Shown here: positions 3,164-60,162 of the stretch, piece after piece
Layout of the letters: each line of letters starts with the position of its first letter
How positions within the stretch are numbered: position 1 is the stretch's first letter
Origin: Bacilli bacterium
Lineage (GTDB): Bacteria > Bacillota_I > Bacilli_A > RFN20 > DUOF01
DNA: 64,000 bases
Assembly (NCBI GenBank): GCA_045119835.1
Contig: JBGVED010000040.1
Coordinates: forward strand, 388 to 64,387
Direction: 5' to 3'
Notes under the pieces: generated by a model
What the model was told of the DNA's origin: nothing
Database searches by the model: none
The model's input: the letters and a program-made list of their open reading frames with translations, nothing else
Translations under genes and position numbers: made by a program

Positions 3164-4816
3164 TTACTTCTTTTTAATAGTTATCCTATTATTTAAAACA
3201 TCTATAACTCTATCTACAAATTCTTCTTCATTTAGTTTATCATCAACTGCATCAGGAACTATCTTTTTAGCCTCTTCTACTGCTTTATCAATAATTTTTT
3301 GTATTTGTTTATCATCAAATCCTACAAGTTTCTTCTTTAATTGGATTCCGATTCTAACAGAAATACTTTTATTTAAAGAAATTTTCATTTCTTCAATTTC
3401 TTTTTTTATACTAACATCAATACGACCATAAACCTCTTGATATGCTTTTGTTAACTCTTCTAACTTAACAGATAAACTTGCTAAATCCAAAGAAGTTAAA
3501 TGCTCTTTAAATCCACTAACAATTTGACTAATCTCTTCTTTATAAGTATCAAGTTCTACTCTATCTACTTTACCTTTAACAGCAGCATTTATCTTTTTAG
3601 TTACTGAAGACATAATATTTTTCTTCATTGCCTCTACTTCTTTCTTAACACTTTCATCAATACGACCATTTACTTCTTCATACGATTTTGTCAATTCATC
3701 TAGTTTAAGATACAAACTTGATAAATCGTTAGAATTCAAACGATGATTAAAACCATCTAAAATACCTCTAACTTCTGCCATAAATACATTCAAATCGGTT
3801 CTACTAACTGTATTTTTAATAACCTCATTAATTTTTCTATTAGTCATAATCGCAACATTAGATTTAAATTTCTTTAATTTTGCATCTAAAGAAGCATCCA
3901 ATCCTTTAAAATCCTTCTCAAGTTTGTCTAAAGAATCATTAATTGCTTTTAAATCTATCAAATCAACTTTTTCTTTATATTGACCGACAACTTTTGCAAG
4001 CTCATTTATCTTTTCATCAACATCTTCTTTACTAGCCTTACTCTTATCTAATTTAGCAACACTAGATAAAGATAACTCAAGAGCTCTTTTTATTTTCATA
4101 AATTCGTTAATGTTTTCAACTTCATTTTTAATTGTTCTAAAGTTTGTTGTTGCATTAACTTTAAAGTCATCTACCTTAGTATCATTAATAATCATATTTA
4201 TCGTTTCATCAAATAAAGAATCAATCATATCTTTTGAGGCAATTATCTTAGCTGTTCTATTCTTTTTATTACTTAAATCAACATTATCAAGAGAAATTTT
4301 TTTTCTTTCATTCTCATAAAATCTATACTTTTCAGATACATTTGCTAAAACGCTTTTCTCACACTTATCAACAAAGCTTTCAACCCCAACAAATGGTTTA
4401 TTAGTATCTAACACAGCTTGAAGATCACTCTTATTATTTAAAGTTTCTATAGAATTTTGAACTTTAGCAATATATTTTTGAGAAACAGAATTCCATCTAC
4501 TTTTAATTGCTTTTTCTAACAACTCTCTATGTTCTTTAGTATCTGGATCTATCTTAACAGAATCTAATTTTTTAGCAATAACAGCATCAATTCTAGCACT
4601 ATCTTTTTCAACAGCAGCAATCCTGTCTTGCAATGTCTTTCTAACCTTTTCTACTGTCAAAGTACGTTGTGGCTTAGGAGTTGGTTTTGGAAGTGTAGGT
4701 ACTGTTTTATTAGTTGTTTTTCTATTTTTGATTTTTTTTACAACAGCAGCAATTGTTCCCCCTACAACAGTAACACCAAACGTTCCTCCTACAATAACTA
4801 AAACAGATGTTAACAT
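3164..4816 (-). CDS. Membrane-anchored coiled-coil protein of unknown function, with an internal ~80 aa tandem duplication
   Basis: The N-terminal TM segment is MLTSVLVIVGGTFGVTVVGGTIAAVV. A PKPTPKP linker follows, then a long charged heptad-like sequence. The SD AAGGAGTGG lies upstream and overlaps the end of the preceding gene. Confidence 0.7.
   Translation of the reverse strand: MLTSVLVIVGGTFGVTVVGGTIAAVVKKIKNRKTTNKTVPTLPKPTPKPQRTLTVEKVRKTLQDRIAAVEKDSARIDAVIAKKLDSVKIDPDTKEHRELLEKAIKSRWNSVSQKYIAKVQNSIETLNNKSDLQAVLDTNKPFVGVESFVDKCEKSVLANVSEKYRFYENERKKISLDNVDLSNKKNRTAKIIASKDMIDSLFDETINMIINDTKVDDFKVNATTNFRTIKNEVENINEFMKIKRALELSLSSVAKLDKSKASKEDVDEKINELAKVVGQYKEKVDLIDLKAINDSLDKLEKDFKGLDASLDAKLKKFKSNVAIMTNRKINEVIKNTVSRTDLNVFMAEVRGILDGFNHRLNSNDLSSLYLKLDELTKSYEEVNGRIDESVKKEVEAMKKNIMSSVTKKINAAVKGKVDRVELDTYKEEISQIVSGFKEHLTSLDLASLSVKLEELTKAYQEVYGRIDVSIKKEIEEMKISLNKSISVRIGIQLKKKLVGFDDKQIQKIIDKAVEEAKKIVPDAVDDKLNEEEFVDRVIDVLNNRITIKKK
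3317..3754 (-). repeat. Tandem duplication inside the coiled-coil gene (aa 355-434 and aa 435-500)
   Basis: FNHRLNSNDLSSLYLKLDELTKSYEEVNGRIDESVKKEVEAMKKNI aligns with FKEHLTSLDLASLSVKLEELTKAYQEVYGRIDVSIKKEIEEMKISL. Confidence 0.75.
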
Positions 4817-10459: not shown

Positions 10460-11146
10460 TTATAAAAGTGTAGAAATAAAATAAATAACCAACAAATGAA
10501 CTGGATAAAACATATAAAATAGATATTTTAAATTATATTTCCCTTTTTTACCATTATATATAACTAATAAAGGAACTGTTAAAAATAATCCATTAAAAAC
10601 AATAAAAGTTAAAATAGACTCACTAATAAATGTCCTATAAACTATATAAATCAAACTAATCAAACAATAACAAACTATTTTCAAGTTCTTACTATTACAA
10701 AAATAAAACATTAATATCATAACTAATGCAAATATCCCATAATCACAAAAGCAAACTAAAGAAAAACATAAAAAAACTAATAAAAGTCTATAAAAAATAT
10801 TTTTTATATCCACTAAAGCATATAAACACATAAACCCTAAAAACAAAGTAAAGATAATATTATAAAAATCAAACATAAAAACAGTTCCCACTTTATATAA
10901 AGAATAAGGAATTTGAGAAATAATAGCAAAAACAAGTAACCTCATACCATATTTAAATTTATTACTTGTAAATCTAAAACCATTTGCTATCCCCATAAAC
11001 ATAATAGGAGCGCAAACTCTCCCTATCATCCTAAAAATAATATATAAAGAAAGATTATTTCCTAAAAAACTTATCGCTACATGATCTAACACCATTGCAC
11101 TAATTGCAATAATCTTTAAAACATTACTATTTAAACATCTACTCAT
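10460..11146 (-). CDS. TraX-family integral membrane protein
   Basis: The N-terminus LKIIAISAMVLDHVA is characteristic of the TraX family. The protein is multi-TM and the gene overlaps the helD 3' end by 8 nt. Confidence 0.6.
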   Translation of the reverse strand: MSRCLNSNVLKIIAISAMVLDHVAISFLGNNLSLYIIFRMIGRVCAPIMFMGIANGFRFTSNKFKYGMRLLVFAIISQIPYSLYKVGTVFMFDFYNIIFTLFLGFMCLYALVDIKNIFYRLLLVFLCFSLVCFCDYGIFALVMILMFYFCNSKNLKIVCYCLISLIYIVYRTFISESILTFIVFNGLFLTVPLLVIYNGKKGKYNLKYLFYMFYPVHLLVIYFISTLL

Positions 11147-13142
11147 TTAAACCACCAACAAAACTAGTAAACAATCCATCACTTAAAATCTCTAATTCAT
11201 TAATTGCTCTACTACAAGCAATATAAAAATAATTCTTATCTATTTCACTACAATAATTTTTATCATTTGCACCAAAAACAACAACCTTATCAAACTCTAA
11301 ACCTTTAACTATACTTACCCCACTTACCACTACACCTTTTTTAATTTCTTTATTTTTCACATTTAAAAAAGATATATTAGTAAATCCTTCTAACTTTACA
11401 TACAACTTACTAGCCTTTTTCTGACTCTTGCAAATAATAGCCAAACTTTTACCCTTATAATTCTTGATTACATCTTTTAAATACGCAATTTCGTCATCCT
11501 CACTAGCAAACGATCTAAACTTTACTTCCTTACCTTCTCTTTTAACTCCGTTTATACCCTTACTAGAAATTATTTTTTCTAAAAATCTAAATATTTGAAT
11601 CGTAGATCTATAAGAATTATTAAGTTCTACTACTTTAAAATTATTAAAAACATCATCATAATTTTGCAAAAACAACTTCTGATTCAAATCTCCAACAAAA
11701 GTTTTACTACAATTAAAAGATAGTTGAATAACGCTTCTTTCAATCACATTTAAATCTTGATATTCATCTATAAGCAAATGATTATACTTATCAAATAACT
11801 TACACCCTCTAAAGAAAATCTTTACATAACACAATGGGAAAATATGTTCATATCCAATAATATTTCTCTTAATAACTTCACCATTATAACCAATAGTTTT
11901 TAAAAATTCATTATAGATTTCAAAACAGTTAACATCTGGCAATAACTTATTAACAAAAGTTTCAATAACGTCCACATCATTTTTACTCACTTTTTTCTCA
12001 TTACTAATTCTATCTTTTAAAAACTCTTTAATAAATCTTCTTCTCTCACTATAATTTCTTCTTTTGAATTTATTAAAATATAACTCTTTAAATAACTCAT
12101 TAGAAAAAGTCAATCCAGCTAATTTAAGCCCGATTTTTTCAGTAAACAACTCCGATAATTTATTATCTAAAAAAGTTTTCAAATTACAAAAAAAAGAATC
12201 ACTCTCAAACTCCTTTTTCCCATTAATTAAATTCTCTAAATAATCAATTTTATTTTCTACTCTAAGTTTATTCTTATATAAATCCATCTTCAAAATAGTA
12301 CGTGCGATCTCATTCATTGTCATATTAACAACATTTTCTTCTCCAAGTTCAGGTAAAACATTATCAATATATTTAAAAAACACCTCATTTGGAGTAATAA
12401 AACAAACTTTATTAGCCTCATATTTAACGCTATCTTTATAAACCAAATAAGCAATTCTATGTAACGCAATAGAAGTCTTACCACTACCAGCAACACCAAG
12501 AACTAGCAAATCATTATCACCAATATATCTAATAGCTTCATTTTGTTCTTTCTGAATTGTACTTACAATATTTTGCATAACTACATCACTATTTTTCCCT
12601 AGAACATCTAGTAACAATTCATCACTTATATTCATACCCATATCGACAAAACATTCAAGGTTGCCCTCATTAAATTTATATTGTCTTTTTAATGTGATTT
12701 CACCATCCACCTTGCCTTTAGGAGACTCATAACTGGATTTTCCTAAACTTCCTTCATAATACAAATTAGCAATCGGACTCCTCCAATCATTAACTATAAC
12801 TTCATTATTATCAATTAAAGTTTCAATTCCAAAATAATAAGGAAACTCTCCCCATTCATTTTTAAAATCAACACGCGAAAAATAAGGCTTTGACACCATC
12901 ATCAAATACCTATTAAGCTGCCTATTAGCCATATTATTTATTGCCCTATCATAATTTATATAATCAATCATTTGATTACCAGTCATATCAATACTAGATG
13001 AATCTTTTGCATTAAAAAAACTATTAAAAGTTTCACTAATTGCTTTACTCTTTTCTTTAATTAAATCTTTATTAGATGCAATTTTCTCTTTTAACATCTC
13101 AATTGTTTCATTTGCCTTTTTATACTCATCTATATTTATCAT
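11139..13142 (-). CDS. helD: HelD-type UvrD-like helicase (RNA polymerase recycling motor)
   Basis: An N-terminal coiled coil is followed by KPYFSRVDF, NDWRSPIANLYYEG, EITLKRQY and TIQKEQNEAIR. Walker A is GVAGSGKTSIALHRIAYL. A UvrD-like C-terminal domain is present. Confidence 0.75.
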   Translation of the reverse strand: MINIDEYKKANETIEMLKEKIASNKDLIKEKSKAISETFNSFFNAKDSSSIDMTGNQMIDYINYDRAINNMANRQLNRYLMMVSKPYFSRVDFKNEWGEFPYYFGIETLIDNNEVIVNDWRSPIANLYYEGSLGKSSYESPKGKVDGEITLKRQYKFNEGNLECFVDMGMNISDELLLDVLGKNSDVVMQNIVSTIQKEQNEAIRYIGDNDLLVLGVAGSGKTSIALHRIAYLVYKDSVKYEANKVCFITPNEVFFKYIDNVLPELGEENVVNMTMNEIARTILKMDLYKNKLRVENKIDYLENLINGKKEFESDSFFCNLKTFLDNKLSELFTEKIGLKLAGLTFSNELFKELYFNKFKRRNYSERRRFIKEFLKDRISNEKKVSKNDVDVIETFVNKLLPDVNCFEIYNEFLKTIGYNGEVIKRNIIGYEHIFPLCYVKIFFRGCKLFDKYNHLLIDEYQDLNVIERSVIQLSFNCSKTFVGDLNQKLFLQNYDDVFNNFKVVELNNSYRSTIQIFRFLEKIISSKGINGVKREGKEVKFRSFASEDDEIAYLKDVIKNYKGKSLAIICKSQKKASKLYVKLEGFTNISFLNVKNKEIKKGVVVSGVSIVKGLEFDKVVVFGANDKNYCSEIDKNYFYIACSRAINELEILSDGLFTSFVGGLNE

Positions 13143-28786: not shown

Positions 28787-29059
28787 TTACATTCCAAAGT
28801 TATTTGTGTTCATTCCAATATTAGTATTTCCTGCATTTCCAGGACATTGTGTTTCTTGATCTGTAGTGTGTTGATAATAATATCTATTAACAGGTACATA
28901 TCTATTTACTACATGTGTATGACTAGGGCAAATAACTGGTTGCTCTATTGGAAAACATCTTACAATGGTACTAGTTCTACAAGGCATAACAATTGGCTCT
29001 AATGGTGGACAAGTATTGTTGTTTCCGCAACCACAACCCATATTCATATTTTGATTCAT
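28787..29059 (-). CDS. CotD-family spore coat protein-like
   Basis: The 90-aa product is Cys/Pro/His/Asn-rich: GCGCGNNNTCPPLEPIVMPCRT..VICPSHTHVVNRYVPVNRYYYQHT. This resembles the CotD repeats of P.V.P..H.H. A GGAGG SD and a SigK-like promoter lie upstream. Confidence 0.6.
   Translation of the reverse strand: MNQNMNMGCGCGNNNTCPPLEPIVMPCRTSTIVRCFPIEQPVICPSHTHVVNRYVPVNRYYYQHTTDQETQCPGNAGNTNIGMNTNNFGM
28842..28941 (-). repeat. Direct repeat copy B (inside the intact cotD-like gene)
   Basis: See copy A. The two copies are spaced 1022 bp apart. Confidence 0.85.
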
Positions 29060-29162: not shown

Positions 29163-30104
29163 ATGGTGAAAGCAATGAAAAAATACAACACTATAATTTC
29201 CATATTCTTCTTGATATTCTTAATATATTCTTTACTAAATATAAATGAGATAAGAAACTCAACACTAAATATACTTATGACATTTTCAAAAACAATATTC
29301 CCTTCTTTATTACCATTTCTAATAATTAATCAAATAATCATAAGTTTAGGACTTATTGATTTATTGTCATATTTTCTTCAATATATAAGCATACCTTTAT
29401 TTAAAATAAGTGGAAAAGGAGCCAGTATAATTATAATTGGAATTTTAAACGGTTTTCCAAGCAGTGCCATTTTCACTTCTATTATGCTAACAAATAAACA
29501 AATAGAAAAAAAAGAAGCTCAAAGACTAATAAACGCTATCTTCTTTCCATCAATCAGTTTTCTCTTTTCTATATTATTACCTAATATAAATAACAATAAA
29601 CTATTCACACTTCTAATATTATCAATATACATGAGTGGATTTATTATCCTTTATATTTCCTCATTTAAAATTTGTTCTCCCCAAATAATAACCTTTAAAC
29701 AAACATTAAATAATACCAAAAATAAACTCAATAATTTCTCGCTTCCATTAAAATTAAAAGAAATCATAAATTATTCCTTTAATACCCTGTTAAATATCTT
29801 AGGAATTATTGTAATATTTTCAATTCCCTGCAACATTATAAATAAAATTTTAACTAACAACATCTCATATCTATTTAAAGGGTTAATAGAATTCTCAATA
29901 CCATCAATAACATTATCCCTATCATCTTTAAATAAAAAAACGATAGTACTCTTCTTAAGTACTATCCTCTCTTTCTCCTCACTATCTTCTATTATGCAAG
30001 CAACAATTTTTATAAATGAAGCTTCTTTAAACAGTAAACAATTTATTACTAATAGAATCATAATCACTCTATTAAGTGTTTTTTTATTGTATTTAATTAT
30101 TTAA
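29163..30104 (+). CDS. ylbJ: Sporulation integral membrane protein YlbJ-like (nucleoside-recognition/Gate domain)
   Basis: TIFPSLLPFLIINQIII, PLFKISGKGASIIIIGILNGFPSSA. It is oriented opposite to ylbF, as in Bacillus. The start could instead be the ATG at 29175. Confidence 0.65.
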   Translation: MVKAMKKYNTIISIFFLIFLIYSLLNINEIRNSTLNILMTFSKTIFPSLLPFLIINQIIISLGLIDLLSYFLQYISIPLFKISGKGASIIIIGILNGFPSSAIFTSIMLTNKQIEKKEAQRLINAIFFPSISFLFSILLPNINNNKLFTLLILSIYMSGFIILYISSFKICSPQIITFKQTLNNTKNKLNNFSLPLKLKEIINYSFNTLLNILGIIVIFSIPCNIINKILTNNISYLFKGLIEFSIPSITLSLSSLNKKTIVLFLSTILSFSSLSSIMQATIFINEASLNSKQFITNRIIITLLSVFLLYLII

Positions 30105-30435
30105 TGTCTTCAAAAATACACTCTTCTACACATTTTAATTGAGCCTTCATTTTTTTATACGCCAAATTATAAGCTTTAACAAAACTATTTTCATCTAACT
30201 GGTATTTAACTTCACTAAGTTTTTTTTGAACTAAAGAAACATCACTACCATATTTTTCAAATCGTTTTACTTGACTATACTCCTCTTTTAAACTATCAAA
30301 TAAAAGCAAAAGTTTACTGACCTCTTGATTTTCTAACATTTTCTTTTCTTTTTCCTTCATATCCAAATATAATTCGCTTTTTAAAATAGTTTCTTTTAAT
30401 TTAAATGTAGTTGACAAAATATCACTATAATCCAT
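30097..30435 (-). CDS. YlbF/YmcA/YheA-family (UPF0342) regulatory protein-like
   Basis: The product is 112 aa and helical. It fits the family pattern of the I..S..Y..... region, followed by F..LKEEY and a C-terminal helix. Synteny with ylbD, ylbE and ylbJ supports the call. Confidence 0.55.
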   Translation of the reverse strand: MDYSDILSTTFKLKETILKSELYLDMKEKEKKMLENQEVSKLLLLFDSLKEEYSQVKRFEKYGSDVSLVQKKLSEVKYQLDENSFVKAYNLAYKKMKAQLKCVEECIFEDIK

Positions 30436-30465: not shown

Positions 30466-32175
30466 TTATTTATTTTTTTTACCCTTATTATAATAAAGAT
30501 TATATAGATTATCATTTATTTTTTCTATAATACCTTCAACTTCTTCTTCTACATCTTTTTCATCTATTTTAAGAAAAAAAGCAATTTCATCATTACTACT
30601 TTTAACAAAACTATCCAATCCATAATACATAGCTAACACCTTTTCTTCTTTTTTATTTAAAAAAGACATAGCCTTCTTAACTTTAACCTTATCTTTAGTC
30701 ATAAGTTCACTTAAAAAAGCATCCATATTTTTTTTCTTCTTATTTAAGAATTCTAAATTTGTTAAATTATCATCCATATCCTTTTCTATATCTTCAACAA
30801 TTAACCCAATACTTAAAGGATCAATATCTAAATTTCTAGCAATTTCATCTATTTCTTGCTCCTTATATCCCAAAAGGCCATAATACCTAACAATTATTTC
30901 TTTTTCTTCTCTAGATAAAACATCTAAATAACTTTTAAAATTATCTAAATCATATTTTAAAGATTTATCATTAAATTTTCCCTCATCTATTATATCTTTT
31001 ATTCTTTTTACACTAAAATCTAAAATTCTATCTAAAGAATCATCATCAATATTATATTTAGAACAAATTTTTTCCCTACTTAAAACTTTATAACCATTAA
31101 ATCCATAACTTTCTTTTAAAATTTCCTGATGCATTAAACTAAACTTAACAAGCACTTTTTCTACCAAATCTTTTTCATAACCAGAAAAATCTTTAAAAAA
31201 TCTTCTTTTCATACTAATTTCATTTGGATGCTTAAGTAAAAATTTCAACTTTTCACTATCTCTTCTTATGCTAAAACTTACCCATGAGACTGAAACATCT
31301 AAAATCTTTGCTATATCTTTCATTTCCGTGCAATTATAGCCATTAATACCATAATATCTAGATATTATTTCCTTTCTTTTTTCTCCAAAAGTATCCAAAG
31401 TTGAATTTATCTCTTCTAAACTATAATTTCCAAAAAGTTCATAAAAGAGAACATTATTTCTATTAAATTTATTAATTTTATCGACTGTTTTTTTTATGTT
31501 TCTAATACATTCATTAATCATTTTTCTAGCTTCACTATAATTAACATTAAAACTTTTAGTAACCCTATAAAAAAGATCATTAACACTGCTACACTCATAA
31601 TAAATATCAATAATCTTTTTATCTCTAATATTTAAATAATTATCTACAATATGCAAACTTTCAGCAAACTCAGCTAAAGAATCTTGAAAAATATTCATAT
31701 CATTTAAAATATTAACAAGCCTTTCGTTTCCATAAATTAAAGTTGAATTAACTGTATTTATATCAACACCACATTCAATAGCAATATCTTTCATATCCAT
31801 CTCATCATTACCATTTAGCCCATAATAAAGCTCTAAAACTTTCTTACATCTAGCTGTCAAATACCCAAGCGTTCTAAAAACATCTTGAGTATTATATTTG
31901 CTATACATTTTATAAAACATCTCATTATTACTATATATACCATTAGGGTTAACAAGAATATTAGCAATTTTATCTACACAAGATTGTCTTTTATGTCGAA
32001 CACCAGAAGCAGTGATTCCATATTTTTCTACAAGTTCTTCTATTTTTAATCTATTAAATCCTCTTACACCATAATACTGACAAATAAACTCTCTATCATT
32101 TTTTCTTAACCTTTCAACTGCTAAATCAATTTTTTCTCTATCGTACCCGTCAAACAAGTCATAAAATTCACTCAT
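30466..32175 (-). CDS. Protein made of seven tandem sigma-70 region-4-like HTH modules (no sigma region 2)
   Basis: Repeat units start at about aa 4, 87, 168, 244, 326, 413 and 487. The recurrent core is L..L....R...I...YYG[LIV].G....[ST]..EIA......S...V. The YYG motif occurs as QYYGV, LYYGL, IYYEC (degenerate), RYYGI, ESYGF, RYYGL and MYYGL. The SD AAGGAGT is present. Confidence 0.75.
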   Translation of the reverse strand: MSEFYDLFDGYDREKIDLAVERLRKNDREFICQYYGVRGFNRLKIEELVEKYGITASGVRHKRQSCVDKIANILVNPNGIYSNNEMFYKMYSKYNTQDVFRTLGYLTARCKKVLELYYGLNGNDEMDMKDIAIECGVDINTVNSTLIYGNERLVNILNDMNIFQDSLAEFAESLHIVDNYLNIRDKKIIDIYYECSSVNDLFYRVTKSFNVNYSEARKMINECIRNIKKTVDKINKFNRNNVLFYELFGNYSLEEINSTLDTFGEKRKEIISRYYGINGYNCTEMKDIAKILDVSVSWVSFSIRRDSEKLKFLLKHPNEISMKRRFFKDFSGYEKDLVEKVLVKFSLMHQEILKESYGFNGYKVLSREKICSKYNIDDDSLDRILDFSVKRIKDIIDEGKFNDKSLKYDLDNFKSYLDVLSREEKEIIVRYYGLLGYKEQEIDEIARNLDIDPLSIGLIVEDIEKDMDDNLTNLEFLNKKKKNMDAFLSELMTKDKVKVKKAMSFLNKKEEKVLAMYYGLDSFVKSSNDEIAFFLKIDEKDVEEEVEGIIEKINDNLYNLYYNKGKKNK

Positions 32176-32237
32176 ATAACACTACTCCTTAACTACAAAC
32201 AATTATAATACAACTAATACAACTAATAAACACTTTT

Positions 32238-32453
32238 TTACTCCTCCATCATCGTTGAAACAAGGGTAAGTAAATTAGAGGCATCTTCCACCTTATCAAT
32301 AAATCTTTTTCTTCTAACAATTTTATACTCCTGTAAAAAGTCCTTTATTTTATTCCTATCAACACTTAATATTCTATACCAATAAGTCCTCTCTCTTAAA
32401 AAATGCCAATAATCAGGATTTTTATCCAAAATAAAAATTATATCATTTTTCAT
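32238..32453 (-). CDS. ylbE: YlbE-like small protein
   Basis: The product is 71 aa. HFLRERTYWYRILS resembles the YlbE FLRE.P.WYR.LSR core. The gene lies directly after the ylbD-like gene with a 1-nt overlap. Confidence 0.55.
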   Translation of the reverse strand: MKNDIIFILDKNPDYWHFLRERTYWYRILSVDRNKIKDFLQEYKIVRRKRFIDKVEDASNLLTLVSTMMEE

Positions 32454-32803
32454 TAGTCATCATATCCCCTTGGTGCTTTATACGAAGTTCGTCTACCATT
32501 TACTTTAGAATCTTCTTTTTTACCAAACTCTCCTAATACCCCTAAAATTTTTTTCATTCCTTCCAAATTCTCATTAATCTTATCCAAATTTACTCCCTCA
32601 AGCATCTTAAGTAAACTATTGGAGCTATTTCTTGTTTGCGTAGATGTTGTATTTTCTTTTTTTTCTTTGAAAACATCTGCTTCCTTTCCAAATAAATCAT
32701 AAGTTTCATATAAACTTTGCCAAGTAGTCTCCTTCTTATCTACTCTCTCTTTTAAAAAAGGTTTATCCTTTATAAATTCTTTAAATTCATCTAGTTTATC
32801 CAT
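32453..32803 (-). CDS. ylbD: YlbD-like putative spore coat protein
   Basis: FKEFIKDKPFLKERVDKKETTWQSLYETYDLFGKE matches the YlbD N-terminal pattern FKEFVKKHP.L...V..G..TWQ..YE.W.L.GE. Confidence 0.55.
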   Translation of the reverse strand: MDKLDEFKEFIKDKPFLKERVDKKETTWQSLYETYDLFGKEADVFKEKKENTTSTQTRNSSNSLLKMLEGVNLDKINENLEGMKKILGVLGEFGKKEDSKVNGRRTSYKAPRGYDD

Positions 32804-32951: not shown

Positions 32952-34961
32952 TTATCTCTTATTTATTGCTAAATTTTGTTTGATTATTTCTATAAGTTCA
33001 CAAATTTTTTTATCTACAATATCTTCGCTCACGTTAAATTTCTCACTAATTTCTAATCTAGACATAACATCCACACCATTTAAACCATAATATAAACTTA
33101 TTAATTTTAAGTCCCTTTCATTTAAATCCCTCATAGCTTTTTTCACTGCTATTATATCTGTGCAATCAACATCAACCAAAAAACGTTGATTCATATTTTT
33201 TAAAATACCTTTTTTAATCAATATAATATTTTTATTCAATGTTTCAGAAATAATAGACTTATAAGAATGATATTTTTTAGCAATATATTCTACTCCCTTT
33301 GATTCCCCTTTTAGGCCATAATACATAACAATAATATCAAAACTTTTTACGTTTAAGCCCATCATACCTTCTCTTATTTGTTTTGCAGAAAAACCTCTAA
33401 ACAAATTATAGAATTCTTCCTTATTTGACCCTTTGTTAGCATCAGGAGAAATTAAAAATTTCTCAATTTTTTTCATCCTACTATCTATATAATAATAAAC
33501 ATGCGATTCATCCATATAAAATCTACTAGCAATCTCCTTCATCGTCAAGCATTCCATTCCCAACCCATAATACAAAGATAAAATTCTCTTATCATAATAT
33601 TCTAATTTATTAAATGCCTTATCAACTTCCTCTTTAGAATAATTTTCAAATCTTTTATAAAAACCTTTTTTACTAATACTTCTTTTTAAAGAAGGATCCT
33701 TTAAAATATTAGAAATAACTTCCATTTTTCTCTTTATTAATCCACTAACAGATGAATAACCTAAATAATATTTACTAGCCAATTGATGAATATCCAACAA
33801 CTCATCCTCAAATCCATAATAATAACGAATTATCTCCATATCCCTCTTTTTCAAATCAAGCAAGGCACTATCAATTTCTTCTTTTGAATAGCCATCAAAA
33901 CTTTTATAAAATTCTTCTTGCATTTCCCTTTTTTTATCCTCTGGAGATTTAAGAAGTTCTTTTAATTTATCTAAATCCGCTTTCATTATTTGATTAATTC
34001 TAGATCTAGTTAAATCATATTTTTTGCCAATAGCATCCATAGTTAAAACACAACAACCAAGTCCATAATAAGATTTAAATATATCCTGCCTTCTTTTATC
34101 TAAATTTGTTAAAGCTTGATTAACTTGCTCCTCACTACAACCTTCAAACATACTATAAAATTCTTTTTTTCTTTCTTCTTCTTTTTTTTCTTTTTTTAAA
34201 ATCTTGGAAATTTTCAATATTGCATTATCAACTATTTCATGAATCATAGAAATGTCTACGCTATATTTTTCAGCAATCTCACTAGCAGTAAAACTATCAC
34301 CCTTCAAACCATAAAAATAATTTAATATATCTTGTATTTTTGAATTCAACCCCAAAACACATTCATCAATTTCCTCTTTTGAAAAGCCTTTAAACTTAGC
34401 ATAAAAATATTGTGGAGCATAAACAATCTCTTTTTCATTCCTTTTATTATTTAAATGCCTTTCAAAAATTTTCAATCCATTTTTCAAGTAATTATAAACA
34501 GTATGATATTTTATATCATATTTATAGCTAATATCTACAGGTCGTAAACATTCTCTGCCTATACCATAATAAGAAAGTATAACCTCCTTACCTAACCCCT
34601 CCATTTTATCAAAAGCATTATTAATTTCTTCTAAAGAATAATTTTTATACTTGTCAAAAAATTCTTCTTTTCTATCCACTACTACAGAAACTTTTTTCTT
34701 TTCACCTAGTAGTTCATCTATTTTATTCATACAAAAAGACAAATGATAGTGAACATTGTAAGTTTCACGATTAGACTTAAGAGAAATTTCTTTAACAGAT
34801 AATTTTTCTCCGCCAATTCCAAAATACAAACACATTATTTCTCTGTTTTGAGGAGATAATTTTTCAATACAATCATACACTTTTTCCTTCCCATACTTAG
34901 CTATAAGAGAATTATATCTTTCAAAATGTATACTTAAATCATTATTTTCGTTTTCCTTCAT
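32952..34961 (-). CDS. Protein made of eight tandem sigma-70 region-4-like HTH modules (no sigma region 2)
   Basis: Repeat units start at aa 13, 101, 186, 268, 351, 434, 517 and 594, with a period of 77-88 aa. An example is FYSMFEGCSEEQVNQALTNLDKRRQDIFKSYYGLGCCVLTMDAIGKKYDLTRSRINQIMKADLDKLKELL. The SD GAGGTGA is present. Confidence 0.75.
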   Translation of the reverse strand: MKENENNDLSIHFERYNSLIAKYGKEKVYDCIEKLSPQNREIMCLYFGIGGEKLSVKEISLKSNRETYNVHYHLSFCMNKIDELLGEKKKVSVVVDRKEEFFDKYKNYSLEEINNAFDKMEGLGKEVILSYYGIGRECLRPVDISYKYDIKYHTVYNYLKNGLKIFERHLNNKRNEKEIVYAPQYFYAKFKGFSKEEIDECVLGLNSKIQDILNYFYGLKGDSFTASEIAEKYSVDISMIHEIVDNAILKISKILKKEKKEEERKKEFYSMFEGCSEEQVNQALTNLDKRRQDIFKSYYGLGCCVLTMDAIGKKYDLTRSRINQIMKADLDKLKELLKSPEDKKREMQEEFYKSFDGYSKEEIDSALLDLKKRDMEIIRYYYGFEDELLDIHQLASKYYLGYSSVSGLIKRKMEVISNILKDPSLKRSISKKGFYKRFENYSKEEVDKAFNKLEYYDKRILSLYYGLGMECLTMKEIASRFYMDESHVYYYIDSRMKKIEKFLISPDANKGSNKEEFYNLFRGFSAKQIREGMMGLNVKSFDIIVMYYGLKGESKGVEYIAKKYHSYKSIISETLNKNIILIKKGILKNMNQRFLVDVDCTDIIAVKKAMRDLNERDLKLISLYYGLNGVDVMSRLEISEKFNVSEDIVDKKICELIEIIKQNLAINKR

Positions 34962-34990
34962 AACTTCACCTCAAAACCTAACTGCAAATT

Positions 34991-35019
34991 ATTATAAAAC
35001 AACAAAAATAAATGAACAA
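34991..35019 (-). promoter_or_regulatory. Candidate SigA-type promoter for the 8-module gene
   Basis: The minus strand reads TTGTTC, 17 nt, TATAAT. It lies about 30 nt upstream of the SD. Confidence 0.45.
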
Positions 35020-35070
35020 CTGTTTTTTTTACTCACACAACCAAATTATATTTAAAAATATAAATATACC

Positions 35071-35099
35071 TTGATTAGTTTAATAGTATATGATAAAAT
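35071..35099 (+). promoter_or_regulatory. SigA-type promoter for the rpsB-tsf operon (extended -10)
   Basis: TTGATT (35071-76), 17 nt, TAAAAT (35094-99), with TG at 35091-92. This leaves a 5' UTR of about 130 nt. Confidence 0.6.
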
Positions 35100-35234
35100 A
35101 CACGAGGTTGCAAAGCAACTAATACACACATTAGTAGGTAGTTTTCTCTAGTGCTTCTAGGCAAAGGTGCCAAATTAGAAGTGGGAAAATGGTGACTAAT
35201 GGAGGGCAAAACAAAAGAAGGAGGACTTTACTAA

Positions 35235-45395: not shown

Positions 45396-48320
45396 TTAAA
45401 CCATACTACCATCAAATTTTAATTCGATTAATTCTTCTGTATAAATTGAACTAGCATTAGTCACAATATCTTCTCCATCTTCAGTTTTCTCAAGTATATT
45501 AGCAGTAAAATAAATAGGTATATAAGCGTGATAATAAGTAACATCGTCTAACGCAGCTGCTATTCCATCAATATGTTCCTCAATGCTTTCAATACTTAAT
45601 CCACCCTTAATTGATTCCCTTAATCCTACAATATAAGAATCTATTTGCGTTGTTGCATATCCTCCCATTAAATAATTTAATCCATTAGATATAGTTGTTA
45701 ATTCGGTTATTGTTTCAGCAACACAATAAACAGAATATCCTCCTTCTCCATGAGTTAAAGCATATGTAACATTCTCATAAACAAATCGTTCATTAACAAT
45801 ATCAATGCGAGTTACACCATTGCTAAGATAATATTGACCTGAATCTTCATGTATTCTATATCTATCACCGCTCAAATTAACATAATAAAGTCCATTTTCC
45901 TGTTCAATACTAACCTGTGTTCTCCTAGCAATACTTAAAAGTTCACTCTTATAATCACGAATTGCATCATAATTAAACTTATGCGCCTCTTCTAATTTAA
46001 CTAACTGAGTATTTCTTATTGAATTAACTTGATTTATAAAACTCGTAGTTACTCCAATATTTTTAACACCATTGCTAAAACTACTATATCCATTTACATT
46101 AACATCAATAGGATTAGAACAAGATTTTCCATACTCAATTGAAGCACAGTATTCGATTTTCTCTAACGTAGTTTTTCTTTCTGAATTTCCTGCCAACAAA
46201 TCGAAAATAGAAAATCCAGTAACATTATTATTAGCATCTTTGTTCGTACTAGCATAGAATTTCATATGCGCAGCAGACGTTACACCCCATGAATCTAGAA
46301 TAGCATAAATATAAGACCACGAAGAAGCACCATAAATTTCATCAACAAATTTTCCATCCGAGTACAACCTAATAGAAGGAGAACCGGTTAATTGTTTCAA
46401 TTTATTAACATCGCTAATATTTGCCATTTTGAAAACAGGAATACTAGATGCTTCTTTAAATTCATTTGTCTTTTTATCCAAAGTTCCACATTTTGGAATT
46501 TTATTTCCGTTTTCATCAGTAAAATATACAATATCCTCATAACACAATGTTGTAGAAACTTCTTTATCTTCTGGAATATTATAATTATAAATAGGGATTT
46601 TTAAATAATTTTCTGCAATAATGTCATCCATTGCTTCTTTATAAACTTCACAGAAATTAGCACTATTTGTATCATTTATAGCCTTTTTAGTAGAAATAGC
46701 CGCATACAAAGCAATACCACCAGCAACTAAAAGCAACGCCGCTCCTACAATCCAACCAACACCTGGAACACTAAGCGAAGCAGCACCAACAGCTGCAAGC
46801 ATAGAACTAACAACAGCTGTTTGAGTAATAAGAGCAACAGCAGTATAAGCTAATACGCCAACTCCAACAGCTACAGCAATTCCACCTACCCCAATTCCAA
46901 CATTAGCAAGAACTTCTGCTAAATAACTGGCCAATGTTCTATTAGTACAAGCATCCATTTGAGTCATCATCTCTAAGAAATTAGTATTAAATAAGAAATC
47001 TTCTCCTGCCTGACTTACAATATTTCCTCTATCAATAATAAATCCATCAGCAGTTGTAAAAGCTATATAATCCCCTTTATTACCTCGATCAATAGTACCA
47101 TCTAAAATTTTAGAATACTCATTTACATCAGTAATTTGAGTAACAGAATTCGTTACCTTTGTACTAGAATTAAAATCCAAAATTGTAGTATAGTAAATTC
47201 TTTTTATTCTACCTAACAAAGAAAAATCATACTTAAATTTATAAACAGTTTGAGCAACATAATTATTTATAGCAGAAGCACTACAAAAGTCTTCAGCTGC
47301 ATTCGCTCCACTACAAAGATAAGTGTTAACAACATTTTTTACATAATTTTCTACGGTTCCTCCTTTATCAGAACCAATTAATTCATTAAACCACCCAACG
47401 TTATCAAAACTATATCCTAAAACTTGTTCATGAGTAAAATATCCAAAAAGAGCCCCTTCACCATATAATAAAGTAACACCTTCAGAAGTTCCTTTACCAA
47501 CATTAGCCACTACATTTTGTCCATCCGGCTTATTATCATAGTTTTTATCTCCACATTTAGTTAAAGCAGAACTATCAATTCCAGTATAATCAACAATATT
47601 ATAATTAGAATCAACGCGTAAAAAATCACATTCAGAAACATATCGTTTAGCATTTACAATATTCTTCAAATTATATTGTTCTTCATTTCTAACAACTTTT
47701 GCTCGTTTTGAAGGTTCAAGTTTACTATTTTCATCAATAAATGTTGCAAGACCTGCTTTCTGCATTTCTTCATATGTATGATAATTATCAGCATCCGAAG
47801 GACCTAAAAAATCTAAAGCGTTTTCTATAAATCCTTTATCAGCTTCCTCATTTGCCATATCCTCCCAAGCTAAAAAATTATCTACTAAAACATAATATAT
47901 TAAAATTTTATATTGTGGTTTATCAAACAAAAACTTACCATCAACAACTTCCTCTGCATAAGGAATTACACCATTATACGTAGCATTGAACATTAAATTT
48001 GATTTGTCTGGAAAGCACTTATCTTCATTTCCATCGCCATCCGTATCACTACACTCACCTTTTGGCAAAACAACCAAAATAAAATCTCTCATACTAAGCA
48101 AATAGCTATAGTACATATCCTTATCCATTTCAATAAATTGTGCTTGAGCATACGTAGAATACGCATAAATATTTTTTCCTTTTCCTATAATAGAATTTTG
48201 CCTACTTTCTTTTAAGTTATTCTCATTGTCTCCACAAGCACTAAGTAAAGGAATAGTAACACAAACAACAATCAACAAACTAACAACTTTTCTAACTTTT
48301 CTAAAAAATTTATACAACAT
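45396..48320 (-). CDS. Large lipoprotein with central Gly/Ala-rich membrane-spanning bundle, function unknown
   Basis: The signal peptide carries the lipobox LLSAC (Cys29). The hydrophobic region at aa 463-543, VGIGVGGIAVAVGVGV...VPGVGWIVGAALLLVAGGIALYAAI, separates two Cys-rich domains of about 430 aa each. The SD is GGAGG. Confidence 0.7.
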   Translation of the reverse strand: MLYKFFRKVRKVVSLLIVVCVTIPLLSACGDNENNLKESRQNSIIGKGKNIYAYSTYAQAQFIEMDKDMYYSYLLSMRDFILVVLPKGECSDTDGDGNEDKCFPDKSNLMFNATYNGVIPYAEEVVDGKFLFDKPQYKILIYYVLVDNFLAWEDMANEEADKGFIENALDFLGPSDADNYHTYEEMQKAGLATFIDENSKLEPSKRAKVVRNEEQYNLKNIVNAKRYVSECDFLRVDSNYNIVDYTGIDSSALTKCGDKNYDNKPDGQNVVANVGKGTSEGVTLLYGEGALFGYFTHEQVLGYSFDNVGWFNELIGSDKGGTVENYVKNVVNTYLCSGANAAEDFCSASAINNYVAQTVYKFKYDFSLLGRIKRIYYTTILDFNSSTKVTNSVTQITDVNEYSKILDGTIDRGNKGDYIAFTTADGFIIDRGNIVSQAGEDFLFNTNFLEMMTQMDACTNRTLASYLAEVLANVGIGVGGIAVAVGVGVLAYTAVALITQTAVVSSMLAAVGAASLSVPGVGWIVGAALLLVAGGIALYAAISTKKAINDTNSANFCEVYKEAMDDIIAENYLKIPIYNYNIPEDKEVSTTLCYEDIVYFTDENGNKIPKCGTLDKKTNEFKEASSIPVFKMANISDVNKLKQLTGSPSIRLYSDGKFVDEIYGASSWSYIYAILDSWGVTSAAHMKFYASTNKDANNNVTGFSIFDLLAGNSERKTTLEKIEYCASIEYGKSCSNPIDVNVNGYSSFSNGVKNIGVTTSFINQVNSIRNTQLVKLEEAHKFNYDAIRDYKSELLSIARRTQVSIEQENGLYYVNLSGDRYRIHEDSGQYYLSNGVTRIDIVNERFVYENVTYALTHGEGGYSVYCVAETITELTTISNGLNYLMGGYATTQIDSYIVGLRESIKGGLSIESIEEHIDGIAAALDDVTYYHAYIPIYFTANILEKTEDGEDIVTNASSIYTEELIELKFDGSMV

Positions 48321-57948: not shown

Positions 57949-60162
57949 TTATCTTCTCTTAAACCCTTTTTTAGAAACTTTAGAATCATTTTCTGCCATA
58001 AATCCCAAAACTCTACCATCATATACAACATCACCAAGTTTATTTAAAACAGCATTATTAACACAAGCGTTACCACCAATTCTTTTAAGTCCACTCAAAT
58101 CTCCTATTTTAGCAGAATCAAAATGAGCATCTTCCCCTATATACTCTAAACCGCTTAAATTTCCTATTTTAGAAAAAATAAAATTTGCACTTCCCCCTAT
58201 TTTCTTTAAATTTTTCATACTAACTACTCTAGAATCATAAAAGTCTGCAATCTCACCAATAAACTTCAATTTATCCATTTTATCAATACTAATAGACGAA
58301 AAATTTGCACTTCCTCCAATAAATTCCAAATTGTTAAGGTTTTCAACCTTTGCCTTTCCAACACTAAAATTTCCAAATACTGTTCTCAAATTGCGAAAAT
58401 CATATTTACTATAATCTTCATAAGGTATCTCAACATTGCCTAAAACTATACTATATGGGAATACTTCTTCTTTTACATCTTTTCCAAAAGTTATATCCCC
58501 AATAAAAACTTTTTTATAATTACAACCATATTTTTTAGCAATAATTTTTCTTAAAAAATCTACATTTTTAATTCTATTAAGCAGTTCTTTACGATTACCA
58601 CACTGAGCATAATGAGCCTTATAATCAACAACCTCAGTTAAATCATAAATCATTTGTTTTATATCTATGCTTCCAAAATTTCCAGATTCTATCTTTTCAA
58701 TATATCCCACCAATCTCTTGTTCCACATTTCTTTGTTAAGCCATTCCTCACCAAATTTAATATTTTTATTTTTAGTTAAAAATTCAATAACAACATCTCT
58801 ATACTCTTCTTCGATTTCCTGAGCGTTGCCATTCTTTATTCCCCTAACTTCATCAATTTTCTCACCAATCAACTTAACACCAATATGAGGTTTATTATCA
58901 TTATCTACAAACAGATAAAAATCCCCTTCTACCAAATGACTAGTAGCCTGCTCTTTAGTACACCATGGAGTATCAACTACCATCGCCGATAACTTTTGAG
59001 CATTTTTCAAATAAGATAAAGGCTTATACTTTTTACCTTCAAACCTTATCCATTTCCCTTTATTAAAAGTATTCAAACCATTCAAAACGATTTCTCCACC
59101 TTCTTTCATACTCTGATAAAAAACATCTAAAGCATAAAAATAAAGAGTAGAAAAATTAGTATAAGAACCCTTATTGCTATAAATAACTTCTAAAACTTTT
59201 TCACTAAGTAACATATGAGATTTTATAGTTTCTTCAAGATTTCTTTTATCCATTAAAATTTTAACATTATCATTTTCTCTCTTTTGCCTATAAACTTTAG
59301 TTAAAGTTTCATTTAACATTAAATATTTAAAAGCATCTTCATATTCGCTATTCTTTATTGTTTCAACAATACTTTTATACTCAGCATGTAAAACCTCACT
59401 ATATTTTTTAGCCTTCTTTTTTAAAATATTTTCTTTATTTCTCAAAAAATAAGCATATTCTTTTTCCTTATCACTTAGATTGCTTAACTCCAATTCATAC
59501 TCTCTAAGAATATCTTTACTCTTAACACTTATAAAAAAGTTTAAATCACTTTCTGCTATTTCATATAATTCATCCAACTCACTCTTAATAGTTTCTCTAA
59601 CTTCTTCATATTTTGTGATTCTATTAGTAGGCACTTCATTACCATTTTTATAATAATTAGTAACAAAAATTTTTTCCCAATCACTCAATTCCCTAAAATT
59701 TTGCTTAATTTTTAAAGGAATTATTAAATTTAAATATCTTTTGCTAGTTACAACACTTATTTTTCCTTCATTAAGAATTTGAGAATATAAACAAGAAAAA
59801 TTAAATTCATCATTCATATTCCCGGCAATTAAATCAATAACAATCTCATTATCTACGATTTGCAACAAATTATTACTATCATGAAGAAATTTATAACTAT
59901 TTAAATATAAATTTCTTAACTTTTCTAATTGAAATTTAGGTAGAACACCTAAAACAAAATCCTTAAAAGTTCTAAACAAATTAGTATTTTCATAAAAATG
60001 TAAAACCTCATGCTTATTTACATCATATAAATATTCTTCATAAAAATTATTTAAATATATTGTATGACCTTCACTATATCCAAAAACGCCATTTTCTTCA
60101 TTAAAAAAAACAGTTTTAAGACCTATCTTTTTATTAAACAAAATGATGTTTCTCTCTTTCAT
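57949..60162 (-). CDS. Large cytoplasmic protein with N-terminal HExxH motif and C-terminal LRR-like (BspA/LRR_5-like) repeats, function unknown
   Basis: There is no signal peptide. HEVLH lies at aa 51-55. The central segment is TPWCTKEQATSHLVEGDFYLFVDNDNKPHIGVKLIGEKIDEVRGIKNGN. The C-terminal ~22-aa repeats follow L..L..IGG.A.F..S.I (NLEFIGGSANF, LKKIGGSANF, LEYIGEDAHF, LKRIGGNACV). Confidence 0.6.
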   Translation of the reverse strand: MKERNIILFNKKIGLKTVFFNEENGVFGYSEGHTIYLNNFYEEYLYDVNKHEVLHFYENTNLFRTFKDFVLGVLPKFQLEKLRNLYLNSYKFLHDSNNLLQIVDNEIVIDLIAGNMNDEFNFSCLYSQILNEGKISVVTSKRYLNLIIPLKIKQNFRELSDWEKIFVTNYYKNGNEVPTNRITKYEEVRETIKSELDELYEIAESDLNFFISVKSKDILREYELELSNLSDKEKEYAYFLRNKENILKKKAKKYSEVLHAEYKSIVETIKNSEYEDAFKYLMLNETLTKVYRQKRENDNVKILMDKRNLEETIKSHMLLSEKVLEVIYSNKGSYTNFSTLYFYALDVFYQSMKEGGEIVLNGLNTFNKGKWIRFEGKKYKPLSYLKNAQKLSAMVVDTPWCTKEQATSHLVEGDFYLFVDNDNKPHIGVKLIGEKIDEVRGIKNGNAQEIEEEYRDVVIEFLTKNKNIKFGEEWLNKEMWNKRLVGYIEKIESGNFGSIDIKQMIYDLTEVVDYKAHYAQCGNRKELLNRIKNVDFLRKIIAKKYGCNYKKVFIGDITFGKDVKEEVFPYSIVLGNVEIPYEDYSKYDFRNLRTVFGNFSVGKAKVENLNNLEFIGGSANFSSISIDKMDKLKFIGEIADFYDSRVVSMKNLKKIGGSANFIFSKIGNLSGLEYIGEDAHFDSAKIGDLSGLKRIGGNACVNNAVLNKLGDVVYDGRVLGFMAENDSKVSKKGFKRR

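Follow-up and report, generated by a model that had tools for sequence, protein, structure and literature searches.

The window analysed here is a stretch of 64,000 nucleotides (nt) from contig JBGVED010000040.1 of a Bacilli bacterium (assembly GCA_045119835.1), and all coordinates given below without a locus name in front are positions within it. Its minus strand carries a gene for a 569-amino-acid (aa) protein, here termed A569, and a second gene for a 669-aa paralog, termed B669. A569 is shown below to be an intact protein made only of seven tandem, highly diverged sigma region-4 (sigma-4) domains. As A569 is devoid of sigma region 2 (sigma-2), it is not a sigma factor and cannot itself direct promoter melting; the name "sigma factor", which automatic annotation gives to such proteins, is wrong for A569.

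Seven region-4 modules and no sigma core

A preliminary description of this DNA, made from the letters alone, had proposed that A569 is composed of repeated region-4-like units, and profile searches do detect region 4 in the protein. Specifically, Pfam Sigma70_r4 (PF04545) matches A569 at E 2.1e-15 and 56.4 bits (cut-off 24.1), with three stretches passing on their own, while Sigma70_r4_2 reaches 28.6 bits (cut-off 25.7) and NCBIfam TIGR02937 matches five separate stretches at 7.7e-22 and 77.7 bits (cut-off 42.9). The NCBIfam models for SigK, SigE, RpoS and RpoD also match, in each case via region 4 only. Similarly, when a profile of the modules was compared with the sequences in the PDB, the best matches were region 4 of SigA, RpoS and RpoD, the first of them being Clostridioides difficile SigA (7l7b_F, E 3.4e-8), to whose region 4 module positions 10-67 align without a gap.

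Structure prediction points to the same fold. An AlphaFold2 model of a single module (aa 244-325), built from an alignment of 15 modules, has a predicted local distance difference test score (pLDDT) of 87.9 and a predicted template-modelling score (pTM) of 0.71, and the top 50 PDB matches returned for it by Foldseek are all sigma region 4, with target-normalised template-modelling scores up to 0.83 and root-mean-square deviations of 1.2-2.4 Å over 57-69 residues, the E-values being weak (0.02 or higher) and the query short. Modelled as a whole from an alignment of four orthologs, A569 is predicted to be all-helical with a mean pLDDT of 81.9; confidence drops at the linkers after modules 2, 3, 4, 5 and 6, and modules 1 and 2 are joined confidently. 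A Foldseek search of the PDB with the whole protein gave only matches at E of 0.1 or higher, the top ones all sigma factors, and is not used as evidence.

In a full module, of about 82 aa, a short FY..F helix comes first, followed by the helices of region 4.1, which end in YYG-L-x-G, and then by a helix-turn-helix (HTH). The unit starts originally assigned (aa 4, 87, 168, 244, 326, 413 and 487) hold to within a few residues, the sixth being placed here at aa 409 (Table 1). An independent seed consisting of one B669 module finds A569 modules at aa 4, 87, 244, 326, about 409-418 and 487, and a profile built without module 3 still recovers module 3 at aa 175-242 (independent E-value 6e-5). The loss of the YYG-x-G turn and of the FY..F helix that had been noted for unit 3 is seen in the alignment, where module 3 has YYE-C-S at the place of the turn, together with a deletion of one residue; it is still predicted to form a three-helix unit (pLDDT 83-90). 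The alignment likewise bears out the lack of an N-terminal FY..F helix in unit 6, and adds that the N-terminus of module 7 is modified too, a point absent from the preliminary description. No tandem repeat was found at the DNA level inside the A569 gene.

No trace of a sigma core accompanies these modules. Pfam gives no match to Sigma70_r2 in A569 at E<=1 and none to region 3, and a sigma-2 profile built from relatives of A569 that do possess this domain finds nothing in A569, B669 or their orthologs. Additionally, the residues that read the -35 element in Escherichia coli sigma-70 (R584, E585, R586, R588 and Q589) are kept in none of the seven A569 modules in the gap-free PDB alignment, and nearly all modules have YY in place of R562/F563. 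Only module 4 of B669 (TRSRINQ) keeps a sigma-A-like recognition helix, and that partially. The earlier count of "15 HTH modules" in the two proteins consequently overstates DNA binding, as a single one of them has such a helix, and the net charge of the recognition helix is -5 in A569 module 6 and -6 in module 7.

With region 4 of sigma-70 factors, especially those of group 1/2 (SigA, RpoD and RpoS) and the sporulation factors SigK and SigE, the A569 modules share the fold and the motif L..L....+.I..L.YGL.G....T..EIA.....S...V, and the LK.P tail that follows the recognition helix resembles the KLRHPSRS of primary sigma factors. Unlike sigma-70-family factors, A569 has seven copies of region 4 and no regions 1.2, 2 or 3, and unlike sigma-70 region 4 its modules carry YY for R562/F563, have an extra FY..F helix in front and have lost the -35-reading residues. 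Stand-alone proteins such as YlxM/p13 (UPF0122), the GerE/LuxR HTH proteins and the "positive control sigma-like factor" PRK06930 also have a sigma-4-type HTH without sigma-2; these, however, are single-domain proteins, and their models match A569 below the curated cut-offs (LuxR/GerE HTH, PF00196, 17.3 against 23.5 bits; PRK06930, 27.5 against 136 bits). The model of the anti-phage sigma factor MzaA of the MZA system (NF041931) scores 17.5 bits on A569 against a cut-off of 800, no PADLOC search having been made.

Table 1. Positions of A569, its modules, its putative expression signals and the adjoining genes in the window
Feature	Position	Strand	Basis or remark
A569 coding sequence	30466..32175	-	Open reading frame, 569 aa, ATG start
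Module 1 (aa 4-86)	31918..32166	-	FY..F helix and sigma-4; basic recognition helix TASGVRHKRQ (+3)
Module 2 (aa 87-167)	31675..31917	-	Profile; junction with module 1 predicted at high pLDDT
Module 3 (aa 168-243)	31447..31674	-	Degenerate; leave-one-out profile
Module 4 (aa 244-325)	31201..31446	-	Best-conserved module
Module 5 (aa 326-408)	30952..31200	-	SYG replaces YYG
Module 6 (aa 409-486)	30718..30951	-	No FY..F helix; acidic recognition helix
Module 7 (aa 487-569)	30469..30717	-	C-terminal cap; acidic recognition helix; closest to last B669 module
A569 expression signals	32185..32207	-	TATAAT 32207-32202; AAGGAG ribosome-binding site 32190-32185
ylbF/ricF-like gene	30097..30435	-	Pfam Com_YlbF, 44.5 bits; directly downstream of A569, 30-nt gap
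ylbE-like gene	32238-32453	-	Pfam YlbE, 30.7 bits; between both paralogs; conserved synteny
ylbD-like gene	32453-32803	-	Pfam YlbD_coat, 47.2 bits; between both paralogs; conserved synteny
B669, paralog with eight modules	32952..34961	-	Open reading frame; Pfam, NCBIfam, module profile

Family, paralog and orthologs

The 15-module alignment was used as a profile to search 1.84 billion representative proteins exhaustively. It retrieved 6854 matches at E<=1e-3, presumably ordinary sigma factors for the most part, 277 (representative clusters) at <=1e-10 and 68 at <=1e-30; the largest number of matched stretches in a single protein was 18. The source names of these matches are automatic "sigma subunit" labels only. 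The best matches and the members of their clusters, 160 sequences in all, were analysed further. We define the poly-sigma-4 array family as proteins with at least four tandem modules of about 82 aa that have the FY..F helix, the YYG-L-x-G turn and the HTH; at least four modules are present in 127 of the 160 sequences, and A569, with seven, belongs to the family so defined. A sigma-2-like domain is found in 77 of the 160, and its profile retrieves sigma-K (8vjl, E 8.8e-23), sigma-F and region 2 of SigA from the PDB.

In the sigma-2-bearing members, a SigK-type sigma-2 is followed by one canonical sigma-4 and then by the array of derived modules. The first module after sigma-2 has no FY..F helix and a sporulation-sigma-like recognition helix of the GISQSYVSRI type (S or T at position 52 in 85%, R or Q at 53 in 60%, R, K or Q at 58 in 70%; mean charge +2.8), and the modules that follow it belong to the FY..F type, their helices being variable and their mean charge +1.2. 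All modules of A569 are of the derived type and none is of the canonical first-module type. The family is shown to be rooted in sporulation-type sigma factors, and to be lineage-restricted and rapidly expanding and contracting.

Sigma factors with C-terminal extensions are known, a case with a SnoaL_2 domain being described in PMC7730460. Such factors, among them extracytoplasmic function (ECF) groups with tetratricopeptide repeat (TPR) or SnoaL extensions, resemble half of the family in combining sigma-2, sigma-4 and an extension. The family differs from them in that its extension is itself built of additional sigma-4-like modules, up to 17 in one array, and A569 differs further in being extension only, with no sigma core. 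The literature searched yielded no account of proteins in which region-4 domains stand in tandem; the region-4 domain is classical, whereas the tandem architecture, its scale and its volatility are not.

Several members of the analysed set depart from the common plan. P0055 (L008:3417-7814) and P0062 have a primary-like sigma factor with regions 1.2, 2, 3 and 4, followed by about 11 shorter units of about 74 aa; the unit, IYE.F..YTKEEVD...L...D.E.I.L+YGEDL..P..., retains the portion with FY..F and region 4.1 and has no recognisable HTH, and the gene adjoins cotJB/cotJC/yqfQ. P0025 and P0065 end in TPR repeats. In another lineage, the dcw cell-division cluster on a 1.03-Mb contig from the Hadza gut has two adjacent sigma-2-plus-array genes (L006:6700-12488) inserted between murD and ftsW/spoVE, one for 413 aa with 3 modules and the other for 1495 aa with 17.

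That A569 is a paralog of B669 with the same all-sigma-4 architecture, as first proposed, is upheld by Pfam, NCBIfam and the module profile, and by a protein alignment with 23-26% identity over about 550 aa (E 9e-30). The two genes indeed share no long identical strings, the longest common exact string of 15 nt lying within the range of shuffled sequences (mean 12.8, maximum 16); the best blastn match is 26 nt, that is, there is no DNA similarity beyond chance. These values support the age of the duplication that had been suggested. They do not extend to duplication of a whole array, which the module identity matrix fails to show: A569 and B669 modules, compared one by one, are 10-38% identical and show no colinear correspondence apart from the C-terminal cap (33% between A569 module 7 and B669 module 8; 36% between the latter and module 8 of P0004, an A569 ortholog described below), and the internal modules of B669 are closer to each other (21-41% among modules 3-7). 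The matrix argues for independent internal expansions on a shared cap rather than a clean whole-array duplication, although the divergence is too deep for this to be held firmly. Derivation of A569 from B669 by duplication of the whole array was considered as a candidate and is unsupported by the same matrix.

Orthologs of A569 have 570 aa (69% identity), 569 aa (57%) and, in the colinear P0004, 672 aa (28%, with one extra N-terminal module), the last having its degenerate module at the same position as module 3 of A569. Against the 69% ortholog, the Nei-Gojobori ratio of nonsynonymous to synonymous substitution rates (dN/dS) is about 0.26, an approximate value given that dS, at 0.77, is near saturation. 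By module, dN is lowest in module 4 (0.057) and highest in module 3 (0.37), yet in the latter still below dS, and dN/dS is less than 1 for each module. Judged by these substitution rates, A569 is under purifying selection, and comparison with the lower dN of the neighbouring genes (0.05-0.16) indicates a functional gene that evolves faster than its neighbours. Maintenance by selection, as claimed at the outset, thus finds support in the ratio and in the intact, syntenic and colinear orthologs, and no frameshifted copies were seen among the relatives. Scans with the ortholog alignment retrieved only an unrelated Gemmatimonadota sigma match from GTDB genomes and nothing from JGI metagenomes.

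The same data bear on whether A569 is non-functional repeat debris or a decaying pseudogene. Module 3, degenerate and fastest-evolving, and the unstable length of arrays among relatives could be read in this way; the intact reading frames of 569, 570 and 569 aa in three genomes, the colinear distant ortholog, the dN/dS values, the presence of a ribosome-binding site (RBS) with a conserved -10 element, and the confident fold predicted for all modules make this explanation extremely improbable.

The locus as a hotspot for arrays

The ATG of A569 is preceded at a distance of 9 nt by AAGGAG, and TATAAT lies 11 nt upstream of the latter. A TATAAT-like element is likewise present about 25 nt upstream of the RBS at five related loci; a promoter-consensus scan gave 40 sites against 36.5 +/- 5.7 expected, which is not above chance. 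Overlapping the putative -10 region, at 32206-32228, is a 9-bp unit, GTTGTATTA on the gene strand, repeated 2.6 times; the closest relative, L001, has a degenerate version of it, and L002-L004 have no recognisable one.

On the minus strand, the genes follow each other as B669, ylbD, ylbE, A569, ylbF; they are divergent from rpsB-tsf-pyrH-frr-cdsA-rseP-polC and convergent with ylbJ. Elsewhere in the window there are genes for GerXA-like, HelD, ComEC, Fmt and LeuRS proteins. The setting is that of core chromosome, in a spore-forming member of the Bacillota with a low GC content (about 28%). Translated searches (tblastn) of 50,697 phage and 72,556 plasmid records gave no match, so that nothing in these records marks A569 as a gene of mobile elements. 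The arrangement YlbD-YlbE-[gene]-YlbF recurs on six other contigs from metagenomes and one NCBI assembly (GCA_045128835.1), and the content of the two variable positions is compared in Table 2. The literature searched held no account of the latter assembly.

Table 2. Array content at the window locus and at related loci (M, module; S2, sigma-2 domain; upstream, genes upstream of ylbD)
Locus	Upstream	ylbE-ylbF gap
Window	8 M (B669)	7 M (A569)
L001	8 M	7 M
L002	Partial gene, at least 2 M	8 M
L003	11 M (1027 aa)	Partial gene, at least 5 M
L004	8 M and 1946-aa protein 7M-S2-14M	8 M
L007	11M-S2-4M (1457 aa)	4 M (aligns to A569 aa 218-560)
L009	1722 aa, 229 aa, 465 aa (S2+4M)	No gene

The position of A569 is occupied in relatives by 0, 4, 7 or 8 modules, and the genes upstream of YlbD, one to three in number, have arrays of 8 to 21 modules, in which sigma-2 is embedded in some cases. 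This locus is a hotspot of a multigene family that varies in content. Given this variability, the suggestion that A569 and B669 form a functional pair is not supported in the sense of an obligate one. Among the upstream genes are those for giant proteins with a SigK-like sigma-2 in mid-array (L004:3395-9235, 7M-S2-14M; L007:425-4798, 11M-S2-4M; L009:8001-13169, the 1722-aa protein), which look as if an upstream array gene had been fused to a sigma-like one downstream of it, or else like a very unusual sigma architecture.

A rival to the transcription role proposed below is that A569 is an architectural chromosome protein or a spore-associated structural protein. During sporulation it would then cover DNA or bridge it without sequence specificity, or else be built into a spore structure. 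The neighbours fit this: ylbD is a Pfam "putative coat protein", ylbE and ylbF accompany it, ylbJ encodes a sporulation membrane protein, a GerXA-like gene lies in the window, and other family members adjoin cotJB/cotJC or lie inside the dcw cluster; a multivalent HTH architecture would also suit bridging. Genomic adjacency alone is weak evidence, however, and A569 is acidic overall, the number of modules differs strongly among close relatives, and L009 has no gene at the A569 position, all of which leaves an architectural role improbable.

Other features of the window may be recorded here. The 5' leader of rpsB (35107-35211, plus strand; within the intergenic region 34962-35234) has a mean column identity of 81% over four related loci and a sub-threshold match to the Rfam family t44 (RF00127; 31.4 bits, gathering score 44, E 5e-5), and is probably an ordinary S2 autoregulatory leader in a diverged Bacillota form; at the gathering threshold, Rfam finds nothing in the window. 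A Cys/His/Asn-rich reading frame of 90 aa (28787-29059, minus strand; MNQNMNMGCGCGNNNTCPP...HTHVVNRYVPVNRYYY) has no Pfam match, has a counterpart of 80-86 aa, also without a Pfam match, at the same place in L001, L002 and L007, and resembles, by eye, small spore-coat proteins of the CotD type. The HelD-like RNA polymerase recycling motor (11139-13142, minus strand; NF041464, with an E of 3e-104 that falls short of the equivalog cut-off) lies at a distance of 17 kb from A569. Three large reading frames on the minus strand (45396-48320, 974 aa; 57949-60162, 737 aa; 3164-4816, 550 aa) have no NCBIfam match at E<=1e-10.

Possible roles of A569

We tentatively propose, at somewhat less than an even chance, that A569 is a trans-acting, multivalent transcription accessory factor working at or beside RNA polymerase, with its basic modules on DNA and its acidic C-terminal modules on proteins. 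In outline, A569 would act in trans as a multivalent protein associated with DNA, RNA polymerase or both. Modules 1, 3 and 4, with basic helices, would contact DNA near promoters, in a manner analogous to the extra modules of the sigma-2-bearing relatives, which may extend upstream of the -35 element; modules 6 and 7 would bind protein partners, and the FY..F helices would serve as connectors between modules. The chromosomal setting, with ylbD-ylbE-ylbF-ylbJ here and the dcw cluster in another lineage, suggests that this role is linked to sporulation or the cell cycle. Mimicry of the tip helix of the RNA polymerase beta-flap by the FY..F helix was also considered, as a lead only, the patterns being EE-FY..F.G in the modules and EE-LL..IFG in the flap.

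What the modules may bind was assessed from position conservation over 535 distinct family modules. The conserved positions are those of the fold (F1, Y2, F5, Y8, L20, I27/28, Y31, Y32, G33, L34, I45, V/I56, I67 and L71). Recognition helices are net positive in 70% of the modules and net negative in 18%. Seven putative DNA-facing positions were then compared with the other non-core positions: among paralogous modules of A569 they are 4% identical against 14%, and between orthologous modules of the B type 41% against 53%.

Several observations weigh against the proposed accessory role, in which the binding of DNA or RNA polymerase by A569 modules is putative. The least conserved positions of the family, 58, 53 and 55 (0.43-0.49 bits), are the equivalents of sigma-70 Q589, R584 and R586. 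Between orthologous modules of the A type, the DNA-facing positions are 48% identical against 57% for the other non-core positions, and no part of the domain evolves faster than the putative DNA-facing surface, on the paralog as on the ortholog time scale; such speed is compatible with rapidly shifting specificities and equally with relaxed constraint after the loss of DNA reading. Four of the seven recognition helices of A569 are net negative and the protein as a whole is acidic, with an isoelectric point (pI) of 5.6. No tandem DNA arrays of a period suited to serve as a periodic target for A569 were found, the six-frame translation of the 64-kb window holds no sigma-2-like reading frame, and the whole-protein AlphaFold2 model (pTM 0.40) is confident for the single modules, not for the way in which they are arranged relative to each other.

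A rival reading is a protein-only scaffold or decoy, in which the modules would have lost DNA binding and the sigma-4 fold would instead bind the beta-flap tip, anti-sigma factors or Spo0A-like activators, such that A569 would cluster RNA polymerases or titrate regulators. In keeping with it, variability within the family peaks at the DNA-reading positions, for which orthologs show no preferential conservation, modules 6 and 7 have acidic recognition helices in the orthologs too, and the residues that determine the fold are retained, including an aromatic residue at the equivalent of sigma-70 F563. F563 is important for beta-flap binding, which the F563Y change is reported to affect. The predominance of net-positive recognition helices in the family, on the other hand, and the basic residues that persist at positions 23 and 25, equivalent to backbone contacts, are at odds with modules that do not touch DNA; moreover, the partners are hypothetical, and a conserved neighbouring gene of anti-sigma-like type was not seen at the related loci. 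We regard the scaffold or decoy as a rather unlikely alternative.

It may further be asked whether A569 is one half of a split sigma factor, supplying sigma-4 function in trans to a separately encoded protein that is sigma-2-only or sigma-2-bearing. Relatives at the same locus do fuse sigma-2 to arrays (L004, L007 and L009; Table 2), and L006 has its two adjacent sigma-2-plus-array genes. The lack of a sigma-2-like reading frame in the window, mentioned above, and the derived type of all A569 modules count against such a division of labour, as does the lack of precedent, since we know of no sigma-2/sigma-4 pair working as separate polypeptides; we consider it distinctly improbable.

For the proposed accessory factor, tandem DNA-reading repeat proteins (Myb R1R2R3, zinc-finger arrays and TALEs) offer an analogy only, in that a repeated scaffold shows its highest variability at the putative ligand-facing positions. 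Folds or origins are unrelated, however, and the variable positions are no better conserved among orthologs than the remaining surface, such that a DNA code is not demonstrated.

Sigma region 4 is among the best-studied bacterial DNA- and polymerase-binding domains, and is normally present once per sigma factor. The family to which A569 belongs, whose hosts are uncultured spore-forming gut bacteria, multiplies it to 4-21 copies per protein, with or without a sigma core, and the number of copies shifts between close relatives at one conserved chromosomal hotspot. It is conceivable, if doubtful, that poly-sigma-4 arrays represent a new class of components of the transcription machinery: in the sigma-2-bearing members, the one canonical sigma-4 would read the -35 element and up to 17 derived modules would read or grip extended upstream DNA, or other polymerases, and arrays without sigma-2 would act in trans on the same sites. 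If true, this would amount to a modular, rapidly evolving layer of promoter control in uncultured spore-formers, with the hypervariable helix positions as specificity determinants. Should the arrays bind DNA, they would constitute a bacterial tandem-HTH reader with programmable-looking variable positions; should they bind RNA polymerase or the partners of sigma-4, they would be multivalent regulators or decoys of a new kind. In both cases, the view that promoter recognition employs one sigma-4 per sigma factor is challenged by the members that bear sigma-2.

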